DNA from: Clostridia bacterium
GTDB taxonomy: Bacteria; Bacillota; Clostridia; UBA1212; UBA1255
DNA: 64,000 nt
Direction of reading: 5' to 3'
Assembly (NCBI GenBank): GCA_045546695.1
Contig: JAZQDE010000008.1
Location: forward strand, 27,782 to 91,781
A model generated the notes under the pieces. That model was not told the origin of the DNA. It saw only the letters and a program-made list of their open reading frames with translations, and did no database searches. The position numbers and the translations under genes are program-made. Positions 25,490-58,105 of this stretch are shown piece by piece. Numbering within the stretch: position 1 is the first letter of the stretch; every line of letters begins with the position of its first letter.

Positions 25490-25954
25490 ATGGGTTATTT
25501 ATCAGAAAGAGTTAGTTATTTAAGAGGCCTCGTTGATGGTCTTGGTATTGACAAGACTACAAAAGATGGCAAGATTTTAGATATTATCGTTGATTTACTC
25601 GACGATATGGCTATTTCAATTGAAGATGTTGAAGCATCAAACAACGATCTTCTCGAAGCAGCTGATGAGACAGATGAGAGACTTTGCGACATCGAAGATT
25701 ATCTTTATGATGAAGAAGACGAAGATGACGACGAGTGCGATTGCTGTGACTGCTGTGATTGCGAAGATTGCGAAGATTGCTATGCAGAAGTTGAATGCCC
25801 CGGCTGTGGCCAGGTAATTGAGCTTGAAGAAGTTCTTGCAGAAGGCGCTGATTCTATTATCTGCCCTAACTGCAAAGAAAAGATCGAAATCGAATGGGAA
25901 GACGACGAAGATGAATGTGATTGCGGTTGCTGCTGCCACTGTGAAGAAGAATAA
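25490..25954 (+). CDS. Highly acidic, cysteine-cluster-rich zinc-ribbon protein of unknown function, coupled to efp.
   Basis: Strong RBS GGAGGT 8 nt upstream, 21 nt after the efp stop. The helical N-terminal domain is followed by ECDCCDCCDCEDCEDC, a CPGCG...CPNC zinc ribbon, and CDCGCCCHCEEE. Confidence 0.7.
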   Translation: MGYLSERVSYLRGLVDGLGIDKTTKDGKILDIIVDLLDDMAISIEDVEASNNDLLEAADETDERLCDIEDYLYDEEDEDDDECDCCDCCDCEDCEDCYAEVECPGCGQVIELEEVLAEGADSIICPNCKEKIEIEWEDDEDECDCGCCCHCEEE

Positions 25955-26032: not shown

Positions 26033-27346
26033 ATGTTAATGGAAAAATTTTCACAAATGAATGGTAAAAAATGTGCCTGTGGCAAAATTCACATGCATAC
26101 AATTAAGGATATTATTACGGGCTGCGGAGTAATCAACACACTCCCCTCTTTATTAAAATCTAATAAAAAAGCATTTGTTTTATGTGATCTGAATACGTAT
26201 GAAGCTGCCGGTAAGAAGGTTTGCAATATTCTTGAAGATGCAGATCTTCTTTATACATGTTATGTTCTTCCTGAAAATAACCCGGAGCCGTATGAAAAAA
26301 GCGTCGGTTCTGTCATTATGCATTACGATACATCATGTGATGTAATTATAAGCGTTGGCTCAGGCGTAATGAATGATATAGGCAAAATACTTGCAAACGT
26401 CAGCAATAATCCATATATAATTGTTGCAACAGCGCCTTCAATGGATGGATACGCATCTGCCACTTCATCGATGACACGTGATGGTCTTAAAGTGTCACTG
26501 CCCAGTAAAAATGCAGATTATATCATCGGCGATTCTGATATTTTATGTAATGCGCCGACAAAAATGCTTGCGTCCGGCCTCGGTGATATGATTGCAAAAT
26601 ATGTCAGCATCTGTGAATGGCGTATATCAAATATAATCACAGGTGAATATTATTGCGATGAAATAGCAGCTCTCGTGCGTGCTTCGTTAAAAAAGTGTAC
26701 AGATAATGCCGATGGTCTCATGAAACGCTCTCCTGAGGCCGTATTAGCCGTTTTCGAAGGATTGGTAATATGTGGAGCCGCAATGACGTATGCCGGCTTA
26801 TCACGCCCTGCATCAGGCTGTGAACACTATCTGTCTCATATATGGGATATGCGCGGCGTTGAGTTCAATACAAACGTTGATTTTCACGGTGTACAGTGCG
26901 CCCTTGGCACGTTAATTATAAGCCGTCTTTACGAACAGATTCTGAATACAAGTCCTGATAAAAACAAGGCTCTGCTATACGCTGAAAATTTTGATGTTGA
27001 TAATTGGTACGAGGAATTAAAGACATTTCTTGGAAAAGGTGCCGAAAGCATGATTCAGCTTGATAAAAAAGAGCAAAAATATAATACCAAAGCGCATAAA
27101 GAGCGCCTTGATATTATAATTGAAAACTGGAATAAAATTATGTCTGTTATCAGGGAAGAAATCCCCTCTTCAGACTTTATCTATAATTTACTCGTGACAC
27201 TTAATCTGCCTGTAACTGTTGAAGGTATCGGTCTGCCCGGCGACATATTGCCGATGACTTTTAAAACTTCAAAAGATATCAGAGATAAATACGTGTTGTC
27301 ACGTCTTGCATGGGATATTGGAATAATTGATGAATTAACATTCTGA
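26033..27346 (+). CDS. Iron-containing alcohol dehydrogenase-fold enzyme (sn-glycerol-1-phosphate dehydrogenase / AraM-EgsA-like).
   Basis: VIISVGSGVMNDIGKILANVS and APSMDGYAS are typical of the dehydroquinate-synthase-like G1PDH family. Confidence 0.6.
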   Translation: MLMEKFSQMNGKKCACGKIHMHTIKDIITGCGVINTLPSLLKSNKKAFVLCDLNTYEAAGKKVCNILEDADLLYTCYVLPENNPEPYEKSVGSVIMHYDTSCDVIISVGSGVMNDIGKILANVSNNPYIIVATAPSMDGYASATSSMTRDGLKVSLPSKNADYIIGDSDILCNAPTKMLASGLGDMIAKYVSICEWRISNIITGEYYCDEIAALVRASLKKCTDNADGLMKRSPEAVLAVFEGLVICGAAMTYAGLSRPASGCEHYLSHIWDMRGVEFNTNVDFHGVQCALGTLIISRLYEQILNTSPDKNKALLYAENFDVDNWYEELKTFLGKGAESMIQLDKKEQKYNTKAHKERLDIIIENWNKIMSVIREEIPSSDFIYNLLVTLNLPVTVEGIGLPGDILPMTFKTSKDIRDKYVLSRLAWDIGIIDELTF

Positions 27347-28162
27347 TTATTCCCATCTGTTCCACAGCCAGCAAGAAGCCATGTCTGTCCACTTGGCAAA
27401 ATCTTTATCAACCCATGTAGTTCTTCTGTCACCTACTGATAGACCATGTGTACCATTCTGGAAAATGTGAAGTTCAAAATCAATATTGTTCTCGCATAAT
27501 GCATTTGTGAAAACAAGTGCATTTTTTACAGGTACGGCCTGATCTTTTCTTGTGTGTACAATAAATGTAGGAGGCGTGTGTGGGCCAACATTCTTTTCAC
27601 AAGAGAAATAATTATACTGTTCTTCAGTAAATTCTTCTTTAGAAATGCCGGCATTGTTCACGATTGAACCACCATGCGTGAATGAAAAGTCTGCAGAAAT
27701 AACTGGATAACCGAGAATAAGAGCGTTAGGTTTATTTTCACCATTAGGACAAGCTGCAAGCTCCATAATCTGTGGGTCGTTCCAATGAACACCAAGCATT
27801 GCAACGAGATGTCCGCCTGCCGAAAAGCCGCATACGGCAATCTTATCAGGATCAATAAAGTATTTTTCATGATTTTCACGGATAATTCTAAGAGCCTTTG
27901 AAACGTCAACGAGTGGAGCAGGATGTACAGCATCAGCACCAACTGAATATCTTACGATTGCTACATTAAAGCCAGAATTAAGAAAATGAAAAGCAACAGG
28001 TTCTGCCTCTCTGTCAGATGTCATGGCATATCCGCCACCCGGACATACAACAACCATAGGACGAAGATTTGAAAGAGGAATCTCCGGGCTCTTTGTCTGT
28101 GCAAATACAGTTAACTTTACGTAGTCGCGGTCTTCTCTGAGATTAAATGTCTCAACTAACAT
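27347..28162 (-). CDS. Alpha/beta-hydrolase fold esterase (acetyl-esterase/lipase type).
   Basis: VVCPGGGY oxyanion region, nucleophile elbow GFSAGGHL (G-x-S-x-G), and a C-terminal His. Confidence 0.75.
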   Translation of the reverse strand: MLVETFNLREDRDYVKLTVFAQTKSPEIPLSNLRPMVVVCPGGGYAMTSDREAEPVAFHFLNSGFNVAIVRYSVGADAVHPAPLVDVSKALRIIRENHEKYFIDPDKIAVCGFSAGGHLVAMLGVHWNDPQIMELAACPNGENKPNALILGYPVISADFSFTHGGSIVNNAGISKEEFTEEQYNYFSCEKNVGPHTPPTFIVHTRKDQAVPVKNALVFTNALCENNIDFELHIFQNGTHGLSVGDRRTTWVDKDFAKWTDMASCWLWNRWE

Positions 28163-28185
28163 ATTAAAAACCTCCTTAATTACAC

Positions 28186-28221
28186 AAAAGAGCGTGTAGT
28201 AATAAACTCACACGCTCTTAA
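28186..28221 (-). terminator. Probable terminator of rpsT.
   Basis: Hairpin aagagcgtgt...acacgctctt. The minus-strand sense has a U-rich tail. Confidence 0.4.
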
Positions 28222-28239: not shown

Positions 28240-28506
28240 TTATTGATTAGCAGCAGCCTTACTTGCCTTAGCCAATCTTGACTTCTTCCTTGCTGCCTGA
28301 TTCTTGTGAATGAGACCTTTTTGAGCTGCTTTGTCAAGGTTAACAGATGCAGTCTTAACTGTCTTATCCATATTAGCGTCATTAGTAGCAATAGAAACCT
28401 TTGCTTTTTTAATTGAAGTACGAAGAGCAGACATTGCTGATGCGTTATTTGCAGCCTTCTTTTCTGCAACTAAAACTCTCTTTTTAGCTGATTTGATATT
28501 TGGCAA
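28240..28506 (-). CDS. rpsT: 30S ribosomal protein S20.
   Basis: MPNIKSAKKRVLVAEKKAANNAS... is canonical S20. Confidence 0.9.
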   Translation of the reverse strand: MPNIKSAKKRVLVAEKKAANNASAMSALRTSIKKAKVSIATNDANMDKTVKTASVNLDKAAQKGLIHKNQAARKKSRLAKASKAAANQ

Positions 28507-28572: not shown

Positions 28573-31533
28573 CTACTTACCATTGCAAGCAGATTTTTTA
28601 ATTCCACAGATGCTTTTTGCATTACAAAATTTACAAGGATCAACGTCTTCGGTTGCATTCGGATATGGTGAAAATTTGCCATCGAGAACATTTGTAATCA
28701 TCGTTTTTACATGCTTTTCAAATGAATCAAACAAGTTGTTGAATTCCTCTTCTGATATTGTATTGTTGTCTCTTCTTTTTTTACCGGAAGCAGTCATAAT
28801 ATCTTCGTCATCCAGCGTAAAACCCTTCATTGAGTACTTGTTTTTCACATCATTTTTATTGGCAAAATCCTCAGCTTTGCCTGACACAATGTCGCTGTCA
28901 AATACAAAATAATTTATAGCCGCCGGCTTATATTCAGGGAAATTCTTTAAAAATGCATATAAATACGAAATGAGCTGGAGCTTAATTCCGCGATATATTT
29001 CCCCTGCAGAGATTGCGTGATCAGACGATTTGTAATCTATAACCCTGATATATCTGCCACTCTCATTTTCAAGAACGTCACATCTGTCAATGCGGCCTAT
29101 AAGTGATATATCTTTACAGTTTTTGTAATCAATACTGATACTTACAGGATCATATGCATACTCATACATAAATGGAACAAAATGGTTGCTACGCGCTTTT
29201 TCAAAAACATACCACAAAATGCTTCCTGAAAAATCGCGTAACCGTTCAATCAATCGTAAATTTCTATTATTTTTCAATATATATTTGTACTTCTGCGAAG
29301 AAATAATTGACTCAAAAACAGAATCAGCCGTTTCAACACATAGTTCTTTTGTAATATCATCAATCTTATATGTACTTAACTTGTCACAGCTTGCACTTAC
29401 AGCATCATGCATTACATTACCAATGTCAGAATTCAGCAGCTCAGCACTTTCTCTTTCGTCAATATACATACCGGACTCTATAAAGAACTTATATGGGCAC
29501 TGTATATATTTTTCAATAGTCGAAACACTGTACTTCTTTTTATCAGGATGAAAAAGAGTGTTTACCAATTCATCGTTCAATATAACCGGCTGCAAAACAG
29601 TTTCTGTTGTATGATATTTAAGATCACTGCTGAAATTTATTTTTTCATGTGGATATTCATTAATTTTTGAAATAAGTGCAGCCGACGGGTGCATTTCGTC
29701 CCCTGTCAGCGTTGACAATGAATAAGATACAATTAAATTATCAACTTTGTTTTTAACAAGATTGTCGATGAAAAAATATTCTTTGCAACTTCTTTGTTGA
29801 GTATCATCTGCAAGAGCAACGCCGACAGCTGATAATGCATCTCTTTCTTTATCTTTCAGTAATCCGCCATCATCAAACTTCTTTGGTAAAAACTCTTCAT
29901 TTGCGCCTAAGAAAAAGAGGTATTTTTTGTTCTGCGTTCTGAGGCGTTCAATATTGATTACGTTGACACAACTGTTCATTTGAGGAATAAATCCGATTTT
30001 ACTGCCTGAAAAACCGCTGTCCAGAAATCTTTTCAAAGTGTTCAGGGCGTTATGAACGCCACTTACTTTAATATCGCCAAGAAATGCATCGATCTGATTG
30101 AAAATCTCAATTACAATATTCCACGTTCTGTAATATTCATTTGCATAATCAAGCATATTCAGCCTGAGGAATTCATCTGCTTTTTCTTTAATAATCTTAT
30201 CAAATCTGTTTTTTTGCATAAAATCGCATAAAACACAGATTACTGTATGAATATCTTTAGCCTCTTTAAGTGAAGTTTCAAACGGAATTATTTTATTGAA
30301 AAGATACAGACAGTCTCTGTCCTCACACTCTTCCCATGATTTTTTTCCTTTAAGTCCAAATCGAAGAATATTGTTTTCGAGTTTATCCGGATTTACATTG
30401 AACATACCGGTTTTTAAAAGTGACAGTACATCGTCCGGTCTCCAGTTGTTCAGAATAATATTTACTATAGACATAATCGCTTTTATAAGTGGATTGCTGT
30501 CGATTGTTTTCTTTGAATCAATATGCACCGGGATGCCGTATTTATTAAAAACAGACATAATTAACGTATCATAATCTGATATTTCACGACAACATATTAC
30601 AAAATCATTATAGTCCGTACCATTTTTGTTTAATTCTACAATTCGTTCGGCACAACTACGTACTTCTGCAAACATATCGCTGTGTGTAACAAGTGATATG
30701 TTTTTGTCATCGTGGCGGGGTTCAGGAAGATTAATGTTTTTATATGGTGTATTCGTTTTTTTACAAATATTTACAAGAGCGCGATAAGTATTATCAATCG
30801 GATCGTATATCATGTCGTTATCAAGTGATGTAGATAAAGTAATATTCACACTGTGGGCATTTTTAATCATCAGTGTAATAAATTTATACTCAATATTTGT
30901 AAATCCTGTAAAATTATCAATCCATATATTGCAATCATCAAAAATATTGTTCTTTTCAATTATTTCAAGTGCAGTCTTATAAATCGTTCTGTCGTCCGAA
31001 TAGGAGTTTAAAATGTTATTGCGATAAGACTCAAGAATCAGTGCTAAATCGTCGAATTTGGACGCTGAGGAGCTGAGAAGTGCATTCCTGACCTCGGGAT
31101 TCAATAAATCTTCCGGCGAAACGTCATATTTATTGAATTCATCAATCAAACTCATTACAAGAGCTAATTGTCTTGGCGACTCAAGAAGTTCAGTAAAATA
31201 CTGTAGATTGTGTGAATTATCATTTATAACTTTAGTAAGAAGCATAACAGAACCCGCAGGTGTCAGCTGTTTCTTTGTGTCAACTCCGCCATATTCTGAT
31301 ATTAATCTGTACGCAAAGCGTTTGAAATTGGTTATTTCATATCCGGCAAGAGGCTTGTCAGTCATGTTCAGGAGCCTTTTTTCTTCTGTAACGGCAAACT
31401 GTTCAGGTACAAAGTAGTATGCATCTGTCCTGTCGTTAAAAAAAGAAGTAAAATTTATGATATGCTCTGAAAAAGCTTCAAGGCACATCTTACTTTTACC
31501 ACTACCAGTTTTTCCTGTGATTATATTAAGCAT
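28573..31533 (-). CDS. AddB/RexB-like helicase-nuclease subunit (N-terminal Walker-A domain plus C-terminal RecB-family PD-(D/E)xK nuclease with Fe-S cluster).
   Basis: The start was trimmed to MLNIITGKTGSGKS (M at 31533, 4 nt after the yhaM-like stop). The C-terminal domain has the motifs CPYKFF...GRIDRCDV...VIDYKSS...QLISY. The C-terminal cysteines CKFCNAKSIC fit CX2CX5C as in AddB. Confidence 0.7.
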   Translation of the reverse strand: MLNIITGKTGSGKSKMCLEAFSEHIINFTSFFNDRTDAYYFVPEQFAVTEEKRLLNMTDKPLAGYEITNFKRFAYRLISEYGGVDTKKQLTPAGSVMLLTKVINDNSHNLQYFTELLESPRQLALVMSLIDEFNKYDVSPEDLLNPEVRNALLSSSASKFDDLALILESYRNNILNSYSDDRTIYKTALEIIEKNNIFDDCNIWIDNFTGFTNIEYKFITLMIKNAHSVNITLSTSLDNDMIYDPIDNTYRALVNICKKTNTPYKNINLPEPRHDDKNISLVTHSDMFAEVRSCAERIVELNKNGTDYNDFVICCREISDYDTLIMSVFNKYGIPVHIDSKKTIDSNPLIKAIMSIVNIILNNWRPDDVLSLLKTGMFNVNPDKLENNILRFGLKGKKSWEECEDRDCLYLFNKIIPFETSLKEAKDIHTVICVLCDFMQKNRFDKIIKEKADEFLRLNMLDYANEYYRTWNIVIEIFNQIDAFLGDIKVSGVHNALNTLKRFLDSGFSGSKIGFIPQMNSCVNVINIERLRTQNKKYLFFLGANEEFLPKKFDDGGLLKDKERDALSAVGVALADDTQQRSCKEYFFIDNLVKNKVDNLIVSYSLSTLTGDEMHPSAALISKINEYPHEKINFSSDLKYHTTETVLQPVILNDELVNTLFHPDKKKYSVSTIEKYIQCPYKFFIESGMYIDERESAELLNSDIGNVMHDAVSASCDKLSTYKIDDITKELCVETADSVFESIISSQKYKYILKNNRNLRLIERLRDFSGSILWYVFEKARSNHFVPFMYEYAYDPVSISIDYKNCKDISLIGRIDRCDVLENESGRYIRVIDYKSSDHAISAGEIYRGIKLQLISYLYAFLKNFPEYKPAAINYFVFDSDIVSGKAEDFANKNDVKNKYSMKGFTLDDEDIMTASGKKRRDNNTISEEEFNNLFDSFEKHVKTMITNVLDGKFSPYPNATEDVDPCKFCNAKSICGIKKSACNGK

Positions 31534-32497
31534 CGAAGAAACACCTTGGCTTGTATACACTTCTGTTTTCAAGTGACCAGATTTTGTCACTGAATGTACC
31601 GGGTTCTGTTGTTGAATACGCAGCATTCATGTCATACATTCTGGCATCAAGAATATCCAGATAATGTAATAACTCTGCCTCCGGAAACTGTGGTGCCTTA
31701 GGGCTGCCATGCTCCGGAATATAATGATGTGAGATAATCATATGCTGAAGAAGAAGTGATTTTTCATTGTCAATGCTGAGCTCTTTTGATTTCCCTGCAA
31801 TGTATGCAACGCCCTGCACAAGATGGCCGAGCATAATACCCTCTGTGGAATATTCATTTACAAGGCCAAGATCGTTTACCTGCATCTCAAAGAGCTTGCC
31901 GATATCATGAAGCATAACACCTGCAAATAAAAGGTCTGTATTTAAGAATGTGTATACAGTAGCAAGCGCGTGTGCAGATTTAAGCATTGTGGCTGTATGA
32001 TACAAAAGACCCGATCTGAGTGCGTGATGATTCTTCTTGGCAGCAGGTGCTATCATAATCTTTTCTTTGTTTTCCTCGTAAATATTAAGAACAATCTTTC
32101 TTATATCATCGTCTTTTATCTTTGTGGCTGTATTAATTATATAATCATACATGCTCTGTGCAGAATAAGGTGCGGATGGAATATAATCTTCAATCTTAAC
32201 ATCATCTGTCGGTGAAATATTGCCGATAAAATCGATTTTCATCTGAAGCTGTCCCTGCCATTCAACTACACTTGCCTGGACTTTTACAATTGTTCCTACC
32301 TTGAAACGGTTGGCATTTTCTTCATCCCAGTCCCATAATTTGGCATTTATATCCCCTGTCTTGTCAGAAAGAGTGAAATTCATATATTTATTATTTGTAG
32401 TCGTTGTTTTTACATCGGCTTCTTTGATGTAATAATATGACTTTACGGCATCTTTTGCTCTTAAATCTACAATTTTTTTATCAACAAAGTTTGGCAT
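31526..32497 (-). CDS. yhaM: YhaM-like 3'-5' exonuclease (OB-fold plus HD domain).
   Basis: An N-terminal OB-fold region, then the HD motif VMLHDIGK and additional His/Asp metal ligands (ISHHY). Length is about 320 aa, as for YhaM. Confidence 0.7.
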   Translation of the reverse strand: MPNFVDKKIVDLRAKDAVKSYYYIKEADVKTTTTNNKYMNFTLSDKTGDINAKLWDWDEENANRFKVGTIVKVQASVVEWQGQLQMKIDFIGNISPTDDVKIEDYIPSAPYSAQSMYDYIINTATKIKDDDIRKIVLNIYEENKEKIMIAPAAKKNHHALRSGLLYHTATMLKSAHALATVYTFLNTDLLFAGVMLHDIGKLFEMQVNDLGLVNEYSTEGIMLGHLVQGVAYIAGKSKELSIDNEKSLLLQHMIISHHYIPEHGSPKAPQFPEAELLHYLDILDARMYDMNAAYSTTEPGTFSDKIWSLENRSVYKPRCFFDA

Positions 32498-32507
32498 AAT
32501 ATAACTC

Positions 32508-33128
32508 CTATCTTAAAAATTTATCTATCATGTTTCCGGCAACGTTTTTAATTTCAAGAAGAACGTCATCAGAAACGGTAAAACTGTATAATTTATTTAT
32601 ATCACATTCAAGAATATATGTAATAGCTTTTAATGTCGATAGCTTATATCCTTTATCACTCAGTTCTTCTATATCAGGCGTCCAACCGGATATATCAAGC
32701 AATTTGATATAATAAACAGCTTCAACAAAGTCCGGTTTTTTTATATTTTTATTAAGACAACTGAGTGTCTGCACGTATAATTCAAAACATTCCGGATCTT
32801 CGAGATCCTCCTGTATAACAGGAATTGTTCTGGCTGTAATGTTACAGGCAATATTATATGTATCATAATCCTGAGTTATGTCAAAAAATGAATCAATAAT
32901 TTCAGCTCCGATTAATGTATACATATTTCCTCTGCCTTTGACTATACGCATGTTGCTGAAAGCAAACAGCTGTGCTGCTGCAGATAATTTTCCTGTAATC
33001 TTTTTTACGCCGTTGACAGCAATGCTGATTCTGCCAAGCTTCTGTGTAAAGCATACAGCTGCTTTACTACTCTCGCCTAAGGCGGAAGTTCTCATTATTA
33101 CTCCCATTGTGCGTATTTCTTCACTCAT
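32508..33128 (-). CDS. recO: DNA repair protein RecO (short form lacking the C-terminal zinc finger).
   Basis: N-terminus GVIMRTSALGESSKAAVCFTQKLGRISIAVNGVKK matches the RecO OB-fold N-terminus. Position after era is as in B. subtilis. Only 206 aa and no CxxC pairs. Confidence 0.6.
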   Translation of the reverse strand: MSEEIRTMGVIMRTSALGESSKAAVCFTQKLGRISIAVNGVKKITGKLSAAAQLFAFSNMRIVKGRGNMYTLIGAEIIDSFFDITQDYDTYNIACNITARTIPVIQEDLEDPECFELYVQTLSCLNKNIKKPDFVEAVYYIKLLDISGWTPDIEELSDKGYKLSTLKAITYILECDINKLYSFTVSDDVLLEIKNVAGNMIDKFLR

Positions 33129-34021
33129 TTTTTGTATCCAAGCTCCCTGAGAACGCCGCTGTTGTTACGCCAGTCTTCTCTTACTTTAACCCATAATTGA
33201 AGGTTTACTTTAGAGTCAAGTATTTTTTCAATATCAACTCTTGCTTTTGATCCGATTTTCTTGAGCATTGTGCCGCCTTTACCTATCAGGATTGCTTTGT
33301 GTGAATTCTTTTCACAAATGATATTGACTTCAATTGACGTAACACCGCCGGCCTTGCGGGCTTCGTCAAATTTAATAATCTCAACTCCGATACCGTGAGG
33401 CACCTCGTCTCTGTAGAAGAGAAGAATTTTTTCACGGATTATATCTGAAACTATATCACGCAGATTTGTGTCTGTCAGTATGTCATCCGGGTAATATTTG
33501 GGTCCTTCCGGCAAATATTTTTGTATTTCATCAAGCAGCTCATCAAGACCATCGTTTTTAAGGGCTGAGATGGGGTAAATCGACGCGAATTCCATTTTTG
33601 GGGAAAGTATGCTTATCTTCTCTAATATCGTCTCTTTTGCCACTGCGTCGACCTTGTTGATAACAAGTATAACCGGCTTCTTTACGAGTCTGAGAGAATC
33701 GATGATGCGAAGATCGCTTTGTGTAATCGTCTTGTCTGTTGCATCACAGAGAAAAAGTATTACGTCTACTTCGCTGAACGTGCCTTTTGCAACGTCAATC
33801 ATGTACTCGCCCAGTTTGTTTTTCGGAGTATGAATACCGGGTGTGTCGATGAAAATAATCTGTGCATTTTCATTTGTGATAATTGCATTTAGATTTGTTC
33901 TTGTAGTCTGAGGTTTTGGTGATGTTATTGCAATTTTTTCACCAAGAAAACCATTTATTAATGTTGATTTGCCAACATTTGGTTTGCCGACAACTGTTAC
34001 GAAGCCTGATTTGAATCCCAT
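33125..34021 (-). CDS. era: GTPase Era.
   Basis: G1 motif VGKPNVGKSTLIN, FIDTPG, NKVD, and a C-terminal KH domain. Confidence 0.9.
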   Translation of the reverse strand: MGFKSGFVTVVGKPNVGKSTLINGFLGEKIAITSPKPQTTRTNLNAIITNENAQIIFIDTPGIHTPKNKLGEYMIDVAKGTFSEVDVILFLCDATDKTITQSDLRIIDSLRLVKKPVILVINKVDAVAKETILEKISILSPKMEFASIYPISALKNDGLDELLDEIQKYLPEGPKYYPDDILTDTNLRDIVSDIIREKILLFYRDEVPHGIGVEIIKFDEARKAGGVTSIEVNIICEKNSHKAILIGKGGTMLKKIGSKARVDIEKILDSKVNLQLWVKVREDWRNNSGVLRELGYKK

Positions 34022-34560
34022 TATTTGTCTCCTGTTCTTGTATAACCTATGTCTGTCAATATTTCTTCTGTAATCTTATTCATTACATCAAATTCTTCGT
34101 CTGTCATATGGTCGTAGCCATATAAATGTAACATTGAGTGGCAAGTAAGGAATGCAATCTCTCTGTCTGTGCTGTGACTGTATTCATCTGCTTGTCTGAA
34201 TGCCGTATCAAGCGAAATAATTATATCTCCGAAAGGAATTACATTATCTGTAATCTCAACTGCATCTGTACTTGCTGTATATTCTCCGTTAAAAAAGTCA
34301 AGATATGGAAAAGAAAGAACGTCTGTTGCTTTATCGATATCGCGGTTTTCACGATTGATTGTCCTGATGCTTTCATCATCTGTAAAAGTAACAGCAACAT
34401 AAGAAGCCTTTTTAAAATGATCCAGTTCAGGAATCAATTTAATATACTTTGAATCATTTACTGCCTCAACGACGTTTTTAACAATCTTTTTTATTTTGTT
34501 TTTTTGTGAAAAACCAAGTTTGTCATTGTATTCAAATTCAAATTCAATTTTCAAATTCAA
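34021..34560 (-). CDS. ybeY: rRNA maturation endoribonuclease YbeY.
   Basis: ATDVLSFP and the zinc-binding motif HSMLHLYGYDH. Confidence 0.85.
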   Translation of the reverse strand: MNLKIEFEFEYNDKLGFSQKNKIKKIVKNVVEAVNDSKYIKLIPELDHFKKASYVAVTFTDDESIRTINRENRDIDKATDVLSFPYLDFFNGEYTASTDAVEITDNVIPFGDIIISLDTAFRQADEYSHSTDREIAFLTCHSMLHLYGYDHMTDEEFDVMNKITEEILTDIGYTRTGDK

Positions 34561-34626: not shown

Positions 34627-35295
34627 TCAGAAATCACGCCTTCCTGATGCAATCACAGCCCCGAATACACTTTTTGCACCATTATTTTTTAATAATGCCG
34701 CACACTCTTCAATCGTAGATCCGGTCGTAAGAATATCATCAAGTAGTAATATTTTCTTATTATAAATCTGAATATTATCTTTAATTATAAATTTGCTCTT
34801 TTTTCTGTCTTCAAGATTCTTGGAGCTTGTTTTTTCATCATTATTTTTTTTACGCTCAAGCAGTTCAGATATTGTGAATTTACCGGGATTCAGATGATAT
34901 AGCTCTTTAGCTATCAGATATGCCTGGTTGTACCCTCTTGTTGCGAATCTCTTTTTACTTATGGGAATATATGTCAGAATATCTATCTGATTATAAACAT
35001 TATGTTTTTTTAGATGGTTGTTGAGAATAATTGAAAAATTCTTGTATAAATATGGTTTATCATTGAATTTATATGAGATCATTTTATCTTTTACAGGACC
35101 GAAATATTTAAGAGCACAATACATACGGTCGCAAGAAGGATAATTGACATTTTTTTCCAGTGAAACATATCCACTGTACGGGGCAAGTTCTTCAGCGCAC
35201 AAAGAGCACATGCCGTGATTTTTATATTGATTTTCGTTAATTACTACACCGCAAAAGGGACAGACTGCCGGAAAAATTGCCGATAGTATATTCAA
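34627..35295 (-). CDS. comFC: ComF-family protein (ComFC; N-terminal zinc finger plus phosphoribosyltransferase domain).
   Basis: CPFCG...CSLCAEEL zinc finger and the PRTase motif LLLDDILTTGSTIEE. Confidence 0.8.
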   Translation of the reverse strand: MNILSAIFPAVCPFCGVVINENQYKNHGMCSLCAEELAPYSGYVSLEKNVNYPSCDRMYCALKYFGPVKDKMISYKFNDKPYLYKNFSIILNNHLKKHNVYNQIDILTYIPISKKRFATRGYNQAYLIAKELYHLNPGKFTISELLERKKNNDEKTSSKNLEDRKKSKFIIKDNIQIYNKKILLLDDILTTGSTIEECAALLKNNGAKSVFGAVIASGRRDF

Positions 35296-35301
35296 TTGTT
35301 T

Positions 35302-37500
35302 TTAATCCTCCAGATATTTAATTATTTTGTCGTTAAGACCTGTAAATCTTTTTTGCTCTGTATTGTTTTCAATCATTTTACGGACAATATACGTGCTGCC
35401 AACGAGAATAACCATTTTCTTCGCTCTTGTAATTGCCGTATATAAAATATTTCTTGTAAGCAGGAAGTCTGACGTTGAAAACAGAGGAATGATGCAATAA
35501 TCAAACTCACTTCCCTGACTTTTATGTATTGTAATTGCGTAACAATGTTCAAGTGAAATAAGCGACGGAGAATCGTATGTTACTTCTTTTTCATCGTCGA
35601 ACAATACAGTAAGTTTCCTGTTTTTTACATCAACGTCTGTAACCGAGCCCATTTCACCGTTGAAAACTCCGGTACCTTCAACGCCTACTTTATCTTTGTG
35701 ATGCCATTCAAGCTCATAATCGTTTTTAATCTGCATAACACGGTCACCTTGCCTGAATACCACATTCTGGAAGGGAATCTCACCTTTTGAACGATCTGCC
35801 GGATTAAGGCTGCTTTGAAGCATTTTATTGACTTCTATTGTACCGCATGCGCCTTTCTTTGTTGGGATAAGAACCTGAATATCTTTAATAGGATCGATAT
35901 TGTATTTGCTGACAAGTCTTTTTTCACATAGTTCCTGTACGATATTGCGGCATTGAACCGGTGATTGAGAATTCAGAATGAAAAAGTCTCTTTCTTTTAC
36001 ATTGAACTCAGGCATATCACCCGAATTGATTTTATGAGCATTTGTATTTATGATGCTATTTGCGTCACGTCTGTAAATATTTTCCAGAAAACATACGTTG
36101 AATTTACCTGTATTAATTATATCTCTTAATATTCTTCCGGGACCGACTGATGGAAGCTGATCCTTATCGCCGACAAAAATAAGTTGAATTTTTACAGGAA
36201 GCGCGCGAAGCAAATGATACGTAAGAAAAATGTCCATCATTGAAGATTCATCAATTATCAGTACATCACATTCAAGTAAATTGCTTTCGTTACGTCCGAA
36301 ATACATTTTCTGACCTTCCCCACCATTGAACTCAAGCAATCTGTGTATTGTTTTTGCATTTGAATCACATGCTTCTGACATTCTCTTTGCAGCTCTGCCT
36401 GTAGGTGCTGCCAGCAGACATTTTTTACCGGATGCACGCAGAAGACGAAGCAGTGCCATAATTACAGTAGTTTTACCGGTTCCGGGACCGCCGGTTATAA
36501 CGCTGAAGCCACTTGTGGCCGCCTTTTGTATACTGCCGACCTGAAGTTCATCCGGTGTATATCCCGTTATATCTGAAAAATCACGGATTGTTTTTTCAAA
36601 GAGCTTATCATCAATATCATAACTCATCTGTGAAATATCACATAATTTCTTTGCAATGTAGTCCTCGCATTGATAAACGTAGAAAATATAAATATTCAAA
36701 TCATCATCATTTTCAACACACATTACTTTGAAGGTTGAACGTAAAAAGTCTATACCGCCGAGAATTTCTTCTTCTGTGACCTCAAGGAGTTCGATACTTT
36801 TTGATACAAGTATTTTCATCGGTAGGTAAACGTGACCGGCCGACATAGCAGATTTTAGCACGTGTAAAATTCCGTATGATATTCTTGACCCGGAATTCTG
36901 GGAATACCCCATTGATTTTGCTATCGCATCAGCTTTAATAAATGAGACTTCGTCAAGTTTATCAATCAATTCATATGGATTATCTTTAATCTTATCGATT
37001 GCGTTGCAACCATACATGTTATAAATTTTGACTGCAAGATTTGTTGATAAACCATATTTTTTCAAAAAAACAATAACGTCCTGCATTACCATATGTTCAG
37101 AAAAAGTTTCAGCTATACGTATTGCCTTTTTATGAGATATACCTTTTATTTTTTCAATTCTTTCAGGTTCATAAAGTAGAACGTCAAATGTATCTTCTTT
37201 AAACTCTGAAACAATTGCATGTGCGGTCGCATTACCAACGCCTTCAATAAGGCCAGATGCAAGGAATGCTTCCATATCATCCAATGTCTGAGGAAGCTCT
37301 TTTGTATATGATTCAACGATAAATTGTTCACCATAAAGCTGATGAGATACCATATGTCCTTCGACGTTGATTACCTCACCCGGATACAAAAAAGGAAGAG
37401 ACCCCTTGATTGTAACAAGATCGCCGTTTACGTCGATGTCACAAATCTTGAAGCCGGTCTCTTCATTTTCATAAATTACTTCTACAACTGTACCCTGCAT
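35302..37500 (-). CDS. recD2: ATP-dependent RecD-like DNA helicase (RecD2).
   Basis: SF1 helicase Walker A VITGGPGTGKTT, DEXX LIIDESSMMD, and an N-terminal HhH region. Length is 732 aa. Confidence 0.85.
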   Translation of the reverse strand: MQGTVVEVIYENEETGFKICDIDVNGDLVTIKGSLPFLYPGEVINVEGHMVSHQLYGEQFIVESYTKELPQTLDDMEAFLASGLIEGVGNATAHAIVSEFKEDTFDVLLYEPERIEKIKGISHKKAIRIAETFSEHMVMQDVIVFLKKYGLSTNLAVKIYNMYGCNAIDKIKDNPYELIDKLDEVSFIKADAIAKSMGYSQNSGSRISYGILHVLKSAMSAGHVYLPMKILVSKSIELLEVTEEEILGGIDFLRSTFKVMCVENDDDLNIYIFYVYQCEDYIAKKLCDISQMSYDIDDKLFEKTIRDFSDITGYTPDELQVGSIQKAATSGFSVITGGPGTGKTTVIMALLRLLRASGKKCLLAAPTGRAAKRMSEACDSNAKTIHRLLEFNGGEGQKMYFGRNESNLLECDVLIIDESSMMDIFLTYHLLRALPVKIQLIFVGDKDQLPSVGPGRILRDIINTGKFNVCFLENIYRRDANSIINTNAHKINSGDMPEFNVKERDFFILNSQSPVQCRNIVQELCEKRLVSKYNIDPIKDIQVLIPTKKGACGTIEVNKMLQSSLNPADRSKGEIPFQNVVFRQGDRVMQIKNDYELEWHHKDKVGVEGTGVFNGEMGSVTDVDVKNRKLTVLFDDEKEVTYDSPSLISLEHCYAITIHKSQGSEFDYCIIPLFSTSDFLLTRNILYTAITRAKKMVILVGSTYIVRKMIENNTEQKRFTGLNDKIIKYLED

Positions 37501-37512
37501 ATATTATGAGAA

Positions 37513-39324
37513 TTATTGAGCCATCAGCTCGTTAAATTCTTCACCTTCTATTCTTTCTTTTTCAAGTAAGACTTTTGCAATTGATGTCAATTTGTCAACG
37601 TGATCCGTAAGGACAGCTTTAACATTGGAGTAAGCAATATCGATGATTTTCTTTGCTTCAGCATCAATAATTGCAGCAGTTTTCTCGCTGTACGTACGTG
37701 TGTTTCCGTACGTTTTACCAAGGTAAACTTCACCGCCGCCGGTTTCAAATACCATGTTGCCAATCTCATCACTCATACCATATTTTGTAACGATATTAAA
37801 AGCAGTGTGGTTTGCACTCTTAAGATCAGAACTTGCACCTGTGCTGACCTCGTTGAGCACAATCTCTTCTGCAGCTCTGCCGCCGAGTGATACCATGATA
37901 TCTTCAATCAATTGATTCCTTGTAACGTATGTTTCATCTTCCTCAGGTCTGAATGCAGTATATCCGCCTGCCTCGCCGGCCGGAACAATTGAAATTCTGT
38001 CAACCTTATTTCTTGAAGATAAGAGTTTAACTGCAAGCGCATGGCCAACTTCATGAACAGCTGTAAGCCATTTGTCTTTTTCTGTCATTACGCGACTCTT
38101 CTTTTCAGGGCCAACCATTACTCTGAATACAGCTTCTTTAATATTTGCAGTTGAAATTTTTTCTGCATCATCTCTTGCTGCAAGCAGTGCAGCTTCATTC
38201 AGGAGGTTAGCAAGATCTGCAGCAGTAAATCCGGATGTTATTTTAGCAATATCTGCAAAAGAAACCTCTTCATCAACAGGCTTGTTTTTTGCATGTACTT
38301 CCAAAATAGCCTGACGGGCTTTGATATCAGGATATCCGATAATAACTTTTCTGTCGAAACGGCCCGGTCTTGTAAGCGCCGGATCGAGGATGTCAGGTCT
38401 GTTTGTTGCAGCAATTACAATAACACCTTCATTAATACCAAAACCATCCATTTCAACGAGAAGCTGGTTAAGCGTCTGTTCTCTTTCGTCGTGTCCGCCA
38501 CCAAGACCTGAACCACGATGTCTGCCGACTGCGTCAATCTCGTCGATGAAAATAATACACGGAGAGTTTTTCTTTGCCTGTTCAAACAAATCTCTTACAC
38601 GTGAAGCGCCGACACCAACATAAAGCTCTACAAAGTCAGAACCACTGATTGAGAAAAATGGTACGCCGGCTTCTCCTGCAACAGCTTTTGCAAGATATGT
38701 TTTACCTGTACCGGGAGGGCCAACCATAAGTACGCCTTTAGGAATCCTGGCACCAATCTGTGTATATTTTTTAGGATTCTTCAGGAAGGAAACAATCTCT
38801 GCCATCTCTTCCTTTTCTTCCTCAGCGCCTGCAACATCCTGGAATTTAATTCTGCTGGTTGTATAAAGTCTTGCACGGCTCTTACCGAAATTCATAGCCT
38901 TATTGCCGGCCCCCTGAGCCTGACCAAGCAACATGTAAAATACAAATACAAGCATAAGAATTATAAGAATATACGGAACAAGACGAAGCAAGAAAGGAAC
39001 TTGTTTTATAACAGCTTTGTAAACTACAGGATTGCCTGCATCAACGGCCTCTTTGATTGTTTCTTCAAATTCAGTTTGAGAAAGAATCTTAACAATGTAC
39101 TTTCCTTTTTTCAGTTCAGAATTGTCGGCACTGTCTGCTTTTAATTTTATTGTGGCAACGTTACTTTCAAGCTCTACAGTCTCAACATTCTGGGCTGTCA
39201 GCTCGTTTAAGTAATCTGTATAATTAATCTCTTCCGGCTGAATCAGCGAAGAAATTATCATGACAATGAATACAATAATACCGATAATTACGATATACGG
39301 TGATATAGTTCTTAAAAATTTCAA
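37513..39324 (-). CDS. ftsH: ATP-dependent zinc metalloprotease FtsH.
   Basis: AAA motif [26 protein letters not shown], and the HEVGHAL zinc site. Confidence 0.95.
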
Positions 39325-51194: not shown

Positions 51195-52463
51195 TCAAAG
51201 ATATTTCTCAATATATTTTTTGCCATCGCCATAAGTGTCAATGATATAATCCATGTCTTTGTCGCCTCTGCCTGACAGACAAACAAGAATTGATCCTGTA
51301 TTGTGCGTTTTTGCATACTTAATAGCGTATGCAAGTGCATGTGAACTCTCAATAGCAGGAATAATACCTTCAAATCTTGACAACAGATAAAAAGCTTCAA
51401 GTGCTTCTTCATCATCAGCTGTAACATAATTAACTCTGCCACAGCTATGCAGATATGCGTGTTCAGGACCTGCAGCAGGATAATCAAGTCCGCTGGCAAC
51501 TGAATATACAGGAGCCGGCTCGCCATTTTCATCCTGAAGCATAATACTCTCAAAGCCATGCATAATGCCCTTTGTACCATATGTTATAGAAGCTGCATGA
51601 TCACCCATCTGTGTACCTCTTCCAAGAGGTTCAACTCCATAAATGTTTACAGGTTCATTTAAGAATGCTGAAAACATACCCATAGAGTTTGAGCCGCCTC
51701 CAACACAAGCAACAACATTATCAGGAAGAAGTCCTGTCATCTCAACGAATTGATCCTTTGCCTCATATCCTACAACTGACTGGAAATCTCTTACCATCAT
51801 CGGGAACGGATGCGGTCCTACGCATGAGCCGATACAATAAATAGCATCCTTATACTCATTTTTATATGCTTCAAATGCACTGTCAACAGCTTCTTTAAGC
51901 GTCTTAAGACCATGTGTAACCGGAACAACGTTTGCACCGAGGAGCTTCATTCTTGCAACGTTAGGTGCCTGTTTTGCGATATCTACTTCGCCCATATATA
52001 CGTCACATTCCATACCAAAATATGCAGCCGCAGTAGCGATAGCAACACCATGCTGTCCTGCACCTGTCTCTGCAATCAGCTTCTTTTTACCCATAAATTT
52101 TGCAAGTAAGCCTTCGCCCATGCAGTGATTGAGCTTATGTGCTCCTGTATGGTTCAAATCTTCTCTTTTAAGATAAATCTGACATTTTCCAAACAAATTG
52201 GAAAGTCTATCACAATGATATACAGGAGTAGGTCTTCCCTGGAATTCTTTTCTGATTCTTCTGAGCTCGCTTATGAACTTTGCACTGTGACAGATAGTTT
52301 CATAGCTGTCAGTAATTTCCTGCATAGCAACCTGCAGATCAGCAGGTAAAAAAGAACCGCCGAAATCACCGAATTTACCATCTTCTGACGGGAAATCTTT
52401 TAAATAATTATCAAAATCTTTATAAGTCTTTTTATCCATATATATTACCTCCGTTAAATTCAA
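51195..52463 (-). CDS. trpB: Tryptophan synthase beta-chain-type PLP enzyme (stand-alone TrpB).
   Basis: HTGAHKLNH carries the PLP lysine. GGGSNSMG and the glycine-rich loops are typical of TrpB. Preceded by a T-box leader. Confidence 0.75.
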
Positions 52464-52519: not shown

Positions 52520-52845
52520 CACCTCTTGTTAAAAAAAGTCTTTGTCCTTAAAACCATAGGACAAAGACTGATAATCTCTGCGGTGCCACCTAAATTGACG
52601 TTTGTCACGCCCACTCATTAGTATACAAACATATACTGTCCAACTTACGTATGGAAACACGTCGACCATTACTCGCTTTAATGCTTTCCTGTCGCCCTCA
52701 TAAGTCCATTCACAGATATAATGCATATAACCTCACACCGGCCGGCTACTCTCTGAAATGATAAACATCTGCTACTCTTCTTAATCACAGGTTTTCAATA
52801 TTCGATTTTTTTAATTAAACAACATTAAATATTCGTTGTCAAGCA
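52520..52845 (-). promoter_or_regulatory. T-box riboswitch leader (probably tRNA-Trp-responsive) with terminator, upstream of trpB.
   Basis: Minus-strand sequence AATTTAGGTGGCACCGCAGAG (reverse complement of 52566-52586) matches the T-box consensus AATTAGGGTGGTACCGCG. The terminator hairpin agtctttgtcc...ggacaaagact plus U-run is at 52520-52559. A candidate promoter (TTGACA -35 and TTTAAT -10 on the minus strand) is at about 52842-52814. Confidence 0.65.
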
Positions 52846-55840: not shown

Positions 55841-58105
55841 TTATTTGTTATACGGGCAATTGTTGAATGCAGTCTCATCAATCTCAACGCCGGCCGGAAT
55901 ATTAACTTCTTCAAGTGCAAAGCAATTGTTGAATGCTTTATATCCAATCTTTGTGATTGTTGAAGGAAGAGTAATCTTTGTAACGGCTGTGCAGCCTGAG
56001 AATGTGTATTCATCAATCAATGTAATTCCTTCAGGAATAACAATTGAAGTGATAAAGTCTGAATCAAACACACCACCTGCGATAGCTTTAACTTCTGCAG
56101 GGATTACAACGTCACCGATAGCATTTACTTTAATGAGAACGCCATCACCAACAATTACAAAATCATCTGTATTGTAGTAGTGCCATGTAGTATTTGTAAA
56201 CGCATATGCGCCAACATATGTAACTGTTGCAGGAATCTCAAGTTCAGTAATCTTGTAGCAATCATAGAATGCATATTTACCGATTGACTGGAGATTTGCA
56301 GGTAATGTAACCGACTCAAGATTTGTACAACCATAGAATGCATAATCCTTAATCTCTGTGAGGTTTGTAGGTAAATCGATAAATTTGATAGATGAGCAAC
56401 CATAGAATGCATATTCACCGATTGATTCAACACTCTCAGGAATAAATATAGTCTGAAGATTTGTACAATAGTAGAATGCATAATCACCAATTGATGTAAC
56501 GCCCTCAGGTATTGTAACACTGTACGGGAGGCTTGAACCATAGAACTCGCGGTCGCCAATCTCTTTCCAGCCATTGAATGTAAATGCAGCAATCAATTTA
56601 ACTTCTTCAGGAATTACGATTGTATCTTCGAATATGTCTGCTTTAATAAGGATACCATCACCATAGATATGGAACTGGTTTTCAGTAGGTGTAACGTCAT
56701 AATTGCTGAGATTATCATACCACGGAGTAGCGTCGAAAGCTTTTACACCGATTGTGCTGAGCTTGAGCGGAATAACAACTCTCTCAAGTGAAGTACAATT
56801 AATAAATGCATAATCTCCGATAGACTGAATAGCATCAGGAAGATTTACTTCTGTAAGAGATGTACAACCATAGAATGCATTGTCTCCGATTGTTGTAATA
56901 GTATCACAGAAAACAATAGTCTCTAATGATTCGCAACCATAAAACGCATTGCTTCCGAGATAAGTAATCTTGTTCTGACTGATGTCAATGTTTTCAAGCT
57001 TTACACAGCCTGCAAACAAGTTGTCATTAATAACTGATACTCTGTTAGGAAGTAAGAATTCTTTAAGATTTACAGCACCTTCAAAAACGCCGACACCAAT
57101 GTATGTAAGTTTACTGCCTTTTTGTGAAAGCTGAACTTCTGAAATCCTGTCAACGAATGAATCAAATGCGCCTTCTGCAATTGAATATGCTGTATCAGGA
57201 AGGTCGAGCACCAGCAAATCATTTTCTGAAGCAGGAACATATGCAATAACAGTACCCTGGCCTACAAGAATATATCTGTCAGTATCTGCCTCTGCAGCTG
57301 ATGCCTTTGCATAAGCATCTGCAAACCACTTTGTACTGTCAAAAGCTTTATCACCGATAATGTAAAGTGATGACGGATACGTAATATCTGCAAGAGCAGT
57401 ACATTCTCCGAAACAGAAACTGCCAACTGTTGTAATCTTATTTGGAAGAACAATCTTTTCTAATGAAGAACAACCATAAAATGCTGATTCGCCAACTTCT
57501 GTAATATCTGTACCGATTTCAACTTCCTTAAGTGATGAACAACCATAGAAGAAATAATCAGGAATCACAAGCATTGTATCAGGACAATTTGACTTCTGTA
57601 AGGATGTACAGCCATAAAATACATTTGTGCCTACTGTCTGTAATTTGTTCTGGAAAATAAATTCAGTGATACCTGTACATCCGGCAAAAGCATAATCGCC
57701 GATGTGGTTAAGGTTGTTCGGGGGTGTAAACGGTCCTGTAAAGCCTGTACAATTTTCGAAAGCATATGCACCGATTGTTGTAATATCCTTCGTGAAAGTG
57801 ATGCTTGTCACGTCACTTCTGTTACTGAAAGCCATATCGCCGATAGCAGTAACTTTTTCAGGTATAACAACGTCTCCACCCTTGCCTAAATACTCAACTA
57901 TAGTAGTATCAACAATGTGAAATTCTTCAGGGTCATATTCAATCTCTTCGCTGGGTGCAAAAGTCGATGATGGCGTTGACTCAGGTGCTGCGGTCGGTGT
58001 AGCAGAAGGTTCTTCTTCGCTACATGCAGCAAAAGTAAAAATCAACGCTAGAACGAACAGTGTCGCCAGAGTCAATTTGAATACTGAACTAAAACGTTTT
58101 ACCAT
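55841..58105 (-). CDS. BspA-type leucine-rich-repeat surface lipoprotein.
   Basis: Lipobox FAAC-S after the signal peptide. More than 15 tandem LRR units of about 22 aa of the form IGDYAFYGCTSL.xV.LP..L..IG..AF. Confidence 0.75.
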   Translation of the reverse strand: MVKRFSSVFKLTLATLFVLALIFTFAACSEEEPSATPTAAPESTPSSTFAPSEEIEYDPEEFHIVDTTIVEYLGKGGDVVIPEKVTAIGDMAFSNRSDVTSITFTKDITTIGAYAFENCTGFTGPFTPPNNLNHIGDYAFAGCTGITEFIFQNKLQTVGTNVFYGCTSLQKSNCPDTMLVIPDYFFYGCSSLKEVEIGTDITEVGESAFYGCSSLEKIVLPNKITTVGSFCFGECTALADITYPSSLYIIGDKAFDSTKWFADAYAKASAAEADTDRYILVGQGTVIAYVPASENDLLVLDLPDTAYSIAEGAFDSFVDRISEVQLSQKGSKLTYIGVGVFEGAVNLKEFLLPNRVSVINDNLFAGCVKLENIDISQNKITYLGSNAFYGCESLETIVFCDTITTIGDNAFYGCTSLTEVNLPDAIQSIGDYAFINCTSLERVVIPLKLSTIGVKAFDATPWYDNLSNYDVTPTENQFHIYGDGILIKADIFEDTIVIPEEVKLIAAFTFNGWKEIGDREFYGSSLPYSVTIPEGVTSIGDYAFYYCTNLQTIFIPESVESIGEYAFYGCSSIKFIDLPTNLTEIKDYAFYGCTNLESVTLPANLQSIGKYAFYDCYKITELEIPATVTYVGAYAFTNTTWHYYNTDDFVIVGDGVLIKVNAIGDVVIPAEVKAIAGGVFDSDFITSIVIPEGITLIDEYTFSGCTAVTKITLPSTITKIGYKAFNNCFALEEVNIPAGVEIDETAFNNCPYNK

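Follow-up and report, generated by a model that had tools for sequence, protein, structure and literature searches.

Why does a gene for an AddB-type helicase-nuclease subunit follow yhaM and precede rpsT, with no addA beside it? We addressed this question for a locus in a 64,000-nucleotide (nt) stretch of Clostridia bacterium DNA (GenBank assembly GCA_045546695.1, contig JAZQDE010000008.1, positions 27,782 to 91,781), here called the window; coordinates are positions within this 64-kilobase (kb) window, and the whole run of genes lies on its minus strand. An initial annotation, made from the sequence alone, had called the 986-amino-acid (aa) product an orphan AddB-like subunit coupled to a YhaM-like exonuclease and RecO, and had offered three readings: a non-canonical end-processing module, a split addAB locus, or a diverged stand-alone nuclease. 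The best supported of these is the split addAB locus, in which a normal AddB, one subunit of the AddAB enzyme that trims the ends of broken DNA, works with an AddA whose gene lies elsewhere, unlinked, in the same genome; we consider it probably correct. That addB stands apart from addA most likely reflects an unusual order of genes rather than a novel repair system. The protein adds a new, divergent and compact member to the known AddB family, and its gene sits in an operon context that is unusual yet conserved within a clade of uncultured Clostridia. The genes on which the argument turns are as follows.

28573..31533, minus strand: addB-like coding sequence, 986 aa, compact AddB homologue (Pfam, TIGR02773, PDB 3U44_B, AlphaFold2 model)
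31526..31533, minus strand: overlap of the yhaM stop and the addB start, 8 nt, ATGCTTAA
31526..32497, minus strand: yhaM-family gene, OB-fold and HD 3'-5' exonuclease, 323 aa (Pfam, NF010007, PDB 9h3f_A)
32508..33128, minus strand: recO, 206 aa, short form without zinc finger (TIGR00613; RecO_N and partial RecO_C)
28240..28506, minus strand: rpsT, which occupies the place downstream of addB (Ribosomal_S20p)

A compact AddB homologue

Pfam ADDB_N (PF21445) matched residues 4-278 of the 986-aa protein with an E-value of 6.3e-51, PDDEXK_1 (PF12705) matched with an E-value of 1.5e-30, and the sole sequence match in the PDB was the AddB of Bacillus subtilis (3U44_B), which aligned collinearly over residues 4-981 with an E-value of 1.5e-74. 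Identity to B. subtilis AddB is 21-22%, and the approximately 180 residues by which the window protein falls short of it (986 vs. 1166 aa) are missing as several small dispersed deletions, with all domains present. The AlphaFold2 model, computed from an alignment of 27 sequences, had a mean pLDDT (predicted local distance difference test score) of 85 and a predicted TM score (pTM) of 0.72, with pLDDT below 50 in two short loops only, and the four-subdomain helicase-like region was confidently modelled in full. This model matched the AddB chains of 4CEH, 4CEJ and 3U4Q with TMq values of 0.79-0.81 (0.81 for 4ceh_B) and E-values from 1e-58 down to 1.7e-61, compared with TMq values of 0.52 for AdnA and RecC and 0.34-0.39 for UvrD or PcrA.

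Two features that set the protein apart from B. subtilis AddB carry no diagnostic weight. On TIGR02773 (addB_Gpos) it scores 516 bits, under the equivalog cutoff of 903.7 bits, but an AddB from a related locus that is linked to addA (L018; related loci are given by such L numbers) also falls below the cutoff, at 761 bits; the cutoff excludes many true Clostridia AddBs. Its short length is equally uninformative because AddB lengths form a continuum of 972-1261 aa, within which it lies, among the 9658 cluster representatives of an exhaustive HMMER search, and because the AddB of Bacteroides fragilis (BF2191), 209 aa shorter than that of B. subtilis, functions in a single-motor AddAB (PMC2887965). 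Profiles, sequence, fold and functional residues together identify the protein as a genuine compact AddB homologue, as the initial annotation had proposed; homology to a family other than AddB, which would have overturned that assignment, was considered, and by sequence, motifs and fold the protein stays with AddB.

The clade to which the window protein belongs is systematically misannotated by the Prokaryotic Genome Annotation Pipeline (PGAP), which names its AddBs as RecC or hypothetical: HIU30348.1, MBO5147376.1, MBR6934418.1, MBE7058625.1 and MBE7064220.1 are publicly named 'exodeoxyribonuclease V subunit gamma' or 'hypothetical protein'. A clade member scored about 25 bits on the recC profile TIGR01450, against 645 bits on addB_Gpos. 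For annotation, the practical point is that the TIGR02773 cutoff misses these AddBs and PGAP misnames them. An anti-phage defence role was rejected, since PADLOC showed just weak domain-level matches to Cas4 (E-value 5.6e-05) and Cas3-HD (E-value 5e-04).

All six motifs quoted in the initial annotation (GKTGSGKS, GRIDRCD, VIDYKSS, QLISY, CPYKF and CKFCNAKSIC) lie where it had placed them. We mapped these and the helicase-like motifs onto the window, taking the residue roles for the Chi locus and the nucleoside triphosphate (NTP) site from Saikrishnan et al. 2012 (PMC3321194), and compared them across 37 AddBs, comprising 18 yhaM-linked proteins and 19 others that include the addA-linked ones.

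31492..31515, minus strand: Walker A / helicase motif I, GKTGSGKS, residues 7-14; G7, G12 and K13 invariant in the 37 AddBs
31390..31410, minus strand: motif Ia-like VPEQFAV, residues 42-48; E44/Q45/A47 correspond to B. subtilis Chi-locus D41/Q42/T44
31306..31329, minus strand: motif Ib-like NFKRFAYR, residues 69-76; F70/R72/Y75 correspond to B. subtilis F68/R70/W73
30898..30924, minus strand: motif II-like WIDNFTGFT, residues 204-212; D206/F208/F211 correspond to B. subtilis D208/F210/F213
29497..29499, minus strand: first iron-sulphur (Fe-S) cysteine, C679, in CPYKF; corresponds to B. subtilis C801; invariant
28963..29097, minus strand: RecB-family nuclease motifs GRIDRCD (813-819), VIDYKSS (831-837) and QLISY (853-857)
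28606..28635, minus strand: CX2CX5C, C967/C970/C976, in CKFCNAKSIC (967-976); correspond to B. subtilis C1121/C1124/C1130

Walker A is the only canonical helicase motif of the window protein, as it is the sole helicase motif kept in B. subtilis AddB (PMC3321194). At motif II, the window protein has IDNF in place of DExx: D206 and F211 are identical to the B. subtilis NTP-site Asp (D208) and to F213, and the Glu that would follow the Asp is missing. Without that Glu, a lack shared with B. subtilis AddB, the window protein is predicted to have no base that could catalyse ATP hydrolysis, and we expect it to bind ATP but not to serve as a motor. Among the seven B. subtilis Chi-recognition residues (D41, Q42, T44, F68, R70, W73 and F210), four are identical, two are replaced conservatively (D41 by Glu, W73 by Tyr) and T44 is Ala; this Chi-locus variation matches that of addA-linked AddBs. 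The nuclease residues D816, D819, D833, K835, Q853 and Y857 are invariant in the 37 proteins, as are the four iron-staple cysteines, which align with those of B. subtilis and would hold a predicted Fe-S cluster. Overall, Walker A, E44, Q45, F70, R72, D206, F208 and F211, together with the nuclease and cysteine positions just named, do not vary among the 18 yhaM-linked AddBs, and the 19 other AddBs show the same pattern; the remaining Chi-locus positions vary alike in both groups. On these residues, we predict that the window protein binds ATP and an Fe-S cluster, scans for Chi and is active as a nuclease.

Set against B. subtilis AddB, the window protein is thus alike in full-length collinearity, fold, a sole Walker A, nuclease motifs and the four-cysteine staple, and differs in length, in sequence identity and at T44; its gene is preceded and overlapped by yhaM and lacks an addA directly downstream. 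The AddB of B. fragilis, compared here by its published description, is alike in its shortness and in its cysteine pattern, one distant Cys and a CX2CX5C flanking the VDYK nuclease motif (PMC2887965); it belongs to another phylum and its gene adjoins its addA (BF2192). AdnA of mycobacterial AdnAB and RecC of RecBCD are likewise non-motor or weak-motor partners that guide the 3' strand on an SF1 (superfamily 1) fold. Unlike the window AddB, RecC lacks the nuclease active site and the Fe-S cluster, and AdnA retains Walker B and motif III.

Conserved yhaM-addB synteny

The longest addB-like open reading frame (ORF) encodes 1017 aa (28573-31626, minus strand), and the 986-aa start is its Met32, whose context, MLxI(I/V)xG(K/R)xGSGKS, is kept in all relatives; AGGTG lies about 10 nt 5' of this start. 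The initial annotation had described a 4-nt gap between yhaM and addB. The two genes in fact overlap by the 8 nt given above, with the addB ATG at 31533 and the yhaM stop at 31526, so that the tight coupling it had noted to a YhaM-family OB/HD nuclease downstream of recO is borne out by the overlap and by Pfam; the 10-nt spacer it gave between recO and yhaM is correct. The same 8-nt overlap of yhaM and addB occurs throughout the window subclade, including L001 and L003, and gaps of 2-35 nt separate the genes in more distant lineages.

We searched for addA locally, in the 64-kb window and within 10 kb on either side of addB in relatives. A phmmer search of the window ORFs with the AddA of L018 (1011 bits on TIGR02785) gave no match. 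No ORF in the window exceeds 1017 aa, and none in the 64 kb is of AddA type; the only SF1 helicase is RecD2, and the other large ORFs encode a GH38 mannosidase, a BspA-type leucine-rich-repeat protein, a nucleotidyl-transferase/phosphomutase fusion, GdpP and similar proteins. ORF lengths and phmmer therefore agree with the earlier observation that addB is followed by rpsT and that no AddA is encoded in the 64 kb. The description of addB as an orphan is supported locally only, in the window and in the 20 kb around addB in relatives.

About 15 related lineages all carry (era-)recO-yhaM-addB. Close relatives have AddBs of 984-986 aa with 50-99% identity to the window protein. A second subclade has AddBs of 1040-1057 aa with about 33% identity in the same recO-yhaM-addB order, and includes Candidatus Egerieisoma and assorted metagenome-assembled genomes labelled 'Clostridia', 'Ruminococcaceae' or 'Oscillospiraceae' from human, chicken, rabbit and ruminant guts. 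In a deeper branch, L028 (GCA_054271195.1), the AddB is 1048 aa, yhaM and addB are adjacent, and no addA lies within 10 kb; in another, L029 (AddB 1108 aa), a GH25 gene stands between recO and yhaM, and yhaM and addB are still adjacent. The gene downstream of addB depends on the lineage, with rpsT, HU, a 349-aa ORF of unknown function, a sortase cluster or reverse-strand genes in this place. Because the gene 3' of addB varies and GH25 splits recO from yhaM in L029, the stable unit is the yhaM-addB pair. Several further lineages with co-located yhaM and addB were present among the AddB and YhaM matches, and all yhaM-linked AddBs formed one clade in a rough neighbour-joining tree, computed quickly from a trimmed MAFFT alignment without support values.

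At five of five addA-linked loci (L012, L018, L024, L025 and L027), addA overlaps addB directly downstream, and yhaM is not near any of these five. We sought an intermediate yhaM-addB-addA order at P0048, where we found a 1050-aa AddB and no addA. Two AddBs of canonical length, in a clade other than that of the window protein and not beside yhaM or recO, are also not followed by addA: in L017 (P0011; 8001-11450, GCA_040797845.1; 1359 bits on TIGR02773) the next gene is of the MerR type, and in L026 (P0012; 116-3490) YfiH and UDG genes follow. Clostridia thus seem to have separated addB from addA on more than one occasion. In L006 (10001-13138) and L022 (1093-4211), the addB-like gene is in two ORFs, by frameshift or assembly error; both are low-coverage metagenome assemblies, with about 2.7x for L022 according to its contig name.

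Between the two subclades, identity is 32-35% for AddB, 31-35% for RecO, 35-39% for ComFC and about 60-65% for YhaM and Era. AddA, AddB and RecO have been placed in one evolutionary-rate class by Rocha et al. (PMC1193525). With a rate like that of RecO, the AddB sequences give no sign of relaxed or redirected selection.

The window YhaM has the Pfam domains tRNA_anti-codon (PF01336) and HD (PF01966), scores 289.6 bits on NF010007 in a full-length alignment (under the cutoff of 460) and matches B. subtilis YhaM (9h3f_A) over residues 16-318 with an E-value of 6.8e-67; compared with 9h3f_A, LHDIGK and the OB Trp are kept and the OB Tyr is Trp. At 54% identity to its counterpart in Clostridium tagluense / Clostridium sp. 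FP2, where yhaM is not beside addB, it is a mainstream family member, and nothing in it looks specially adapted. A 2025 study described B. subtilis YhaM as a hexameric, LexA-regulated, ssDNA (single-stranded DNA)-specific 3'-deoxyribonuclease with a DNA substrate in vivo, and found that transformation requires it (PMC12107432). The initial annotation had likened the locus to B. subtilis yhaO-yhaN-yhaM (sbcF-sbcE-yhaM). The likeness holds in that yhaM stands beside a gene for a large P-loop DNA-repair protein, and it ends there: the partner is the SbcC/SbcD-like SbcE/SbcF in B. subtilis and of the AddB type here, the gene order is reversed with yhaM upstream, and no LexA box (CGAAC-N4-GTTCG) was found near the locus, the single match in the window, with one mismatch, being at 47470. 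Our literature search found no paper naming YhaM together with AddB.

The RecO of the window scores 87 bits on TIGR00613 (cutoff 48.7). It is short and lacks a zinc finger, as first described: no CxxC occurs in it or in the RecO of L003, L004, L013, L028 and L029. RecO measures 202-211 aa across the clade and has a short acidic loop at the site of the Cys4 zinc finger found in many RecO proteins.

Explanations for an addB gene apart from addA

If addAB is split, as we favour, addB would stand last among the DNA-metabolism genes of a (ybeY-)era-recO-yhaM-addB operon that is conserved in an uncultured Clostridia lineage. The inactivated SF1 helicase fold in the N-terminal part of its product would bind ATP without hydrolysis, as in B. 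subtilis AddAB, and would scan the 3'-ended strand for Chi; the C-terminal RecB-family nuclease, held by the four-Cys Fe-S cluster, would cut the 5'-ended strand; and unwinding would be supplied by an AddA motor from the unlinked locus. We favour this reading because the ATP site and the Chi groove, whose only known role is beside a motor that threads the 3' strand past them, are kept as in the addA-linked AddBs, because AddB evolves at an unremarkable, RecO-like rate, because the addB genes of L017 and L026 are also not followed by addA, and because AddA and AddB co-occur systematically in the genomes covered by surveys. In Helicobacter pylori, addA and addB are unlinked.

Several observations weigh against a split. 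As a rule, AddA and AddB are found closely together and their translation is coupled. In the window, the approximately 28 kb to one side of addB and 32 kb to the other lack an ORF of AddA type, and in the roughly 15 related lineages, all uncultured Clostridia of gut and rumen, addA is not within 10 kb of addB. At all five addA-linked loci addB overlaps addA, whereas the gene to which addB is coupled in this clade is yhaM. The yhaM-addB pair has outlasted the turnover downstream and the GH25 insertion in L029, and linkage to yhaM and linkage to addA are mutually exclusive in the loci sampled. We hold the split to be probable, and no more firmly than that, because an addA elsewhere in the genome is inferred rather than directly observed.

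The exclusivity of the two linkages would also be expected if addA had been lost across the gut and rumen Clostridia clade and AddB and YhaM, together with another helicase, resected ends or processed incoming ssDNA. AddB would then serve as a non-motor scanner for Chi or ssDNA and as a 5'-strand Fe-S nuclease, the co-translated, hexameric YhaM would do the work of the AddA nuclease on the 3' strand, RecD2 or PcrA would unwind, and the product would pass to RecO for RecA loading. Speaking for such a module are the retention of the yhaM-addB pair, overlapping by 8 nt or separated by 2-35 nt, down to 32% AddB identity while its flanks vary; the lack of addA within 10 kb in any member and of yhaM near the five addA-linked addBs; the ssDNA-specific 3'-deoxyribonuclease activity of YhaM in vivo (PMC12107432), with the HD motif and OB aromatics kept in the window protein; and the presence of recD2 and recO in one co-directional cluster with addB. 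Yet an AddB without the Walker B catalytic Glu or further helicase motifs is unable to unwind alone (PMC3321194), and conservation of its Chi locus and ATP site is indistinguishable from that of AddBs that work with AddA, a subunit with which AddB co-occurs systematically in surveys. The candidate helicase gene recD2 is not near yhaM-addB in L029, and the order recD2-comFC...ybeY-era-recO is ordinary housekeeping synteny; YhaM is a mainstream protein, 54% identical to a Clostridium YhaM that is not encoded beside addB; and adjacency is weak evidence for physical partnership, the coupling of yhaM to addB and its exclusivity with addA linkage being equally expected under simple operon inheritance. 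We therefore regard an AddA-independent module as unlikely.

Less likely again is that the yhaM-linked gene is an extra paralogue, a second AddB with a modified or auxiliary role in a genome that has a canonical addB-addA elsewhere. That the yhaM-linked AddBs form a deep clade of their own and have TIGR02773 scores (516-671 bits) below those of the other AddBs would fit a paralogue, but their catalytic and ligand sites are all kept as in canonical AddBs, their RecO-like rate shows no acceleration after a duplication, none of the fetched contigs carries a second AddB, and we know of no AddB paralogues as a feature of Firmicutes. Least probable of all, in our judgement, is a function outside end resection, whether as a stand-alone nuclease of the Cas4/Dna2-like Fe-S type or as a decaying relic of AddAB. 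The weak similarity of the nuclease domain to Cas4, the length of the window protein (about 15% shorter than B. subtilis AddB) and the genes in two ORFs in L006 and L022 point that way. They are countered by the full helicase-like region, confidently modelled (mean pLDDT 85), by deletions that are dispersed and remove no domain, by the intact ORFs of about 15 lineages, in which Walker A and the Chi-locus residues do not vary, and by the origin of both split genes in low-coverage metagenome assemblies; the diverged stand-alone nuclease of the initial annotation is disfavoured in particular by an ATP site and Chi locus like those of addA-linked AddBs.

With addA elsewhere in the genome, the split addAB locus would document the division of a tightly coupled two-subunit enzyme, one subunit of which has been re-embedded in an era-recO-yhaM operon, and this re-embedding would be stable over deep divergence. 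The yhaM-addB pairing is also a hint that YhaM and AddAB share DNA intermediates. If addA were truly absent, this would be the first AddB without AddA, and would alter the view of how AddAB-type resection machines are designed.

Neighbouring genes and other features of the window

The genes ftsH, recD2, comFC-like, ybeY, era, recO, yhaM, addB and rpsT form one co-directional run, in which 66 nt separate addB from rpsT. The members upstream of recO are as follows.

33125..34021, minus strand: era, overlapping recO by 4 nt
34021..34560, minus strand: ybeY
34627..35295, minus strand: comFC-like gene, phosphoribosyltransferase-fold protein (Pfam Pribosyltran and DZR_2)
35302..37500, minus strand: recD2, SF1B helicase (TIGR01448, 788 bits; cutoff 500)
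37513-39324, minus strand: ftsH

A scan for promoters and terminators gave a number of sites not above that in shuffled sequence; its sole notable site was a promoter-like TTGCAA-17-TATAAT at 28588-28560, a plausible rpsT promoter. In every lineage examined, recD2 is followed directly by the comFC-like gene (window 34627-37500, minus strand; L004 1067-3959; L028 1028-3975; L031 1-2333), with a 6-nt gap in the window and overlapping ORFs in relatives, and no comFA was seen in these lineages. RecD2 might stand in for ComFA, or recD2-comFC may be a common arrangement in Clostridia.

Beside efp, a 154-aa ORF (25490-25954, plus strand) encodes a very acidic, Cys-rich protein in which CDCCDCCDCEDCEDC, two CxxC pairs and CDCGCCCHC occur. 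It is kept in L001 (15583-16035) and L003 (15595-16074), has no Pfam match on record, and could bind metal or be of the zinc-ribbon type. At approximately 27300-28200, both gene orientation and GC skew switch, from plus-strand genes and positive skew on the left to minus-strand genes and negative skew on the right, so that the genes converge; cumulative GC skew reaches its maximum at 26-28 kb of the window. This switch may mark a point resembling a terminus, or the edge of an inversion; genes of origin-proximal type (dnaB, tilS, ftsH and gdpP) lie just to its right. A full-length T-box leader (RF00230, 112.8 bits) at 52554-52797 on the minus strand lies 5' of a gene for a PALP-family pyridoxal-phosphate enzyme (51195-52463, minus strand), and the BspA-type leucine-rich-repeat protein, 754 aa (55841-58105, minus strand; six PF13306 matches, E-value 8.7e-153), is encoded amid housekeeping and cell-envelope genes.

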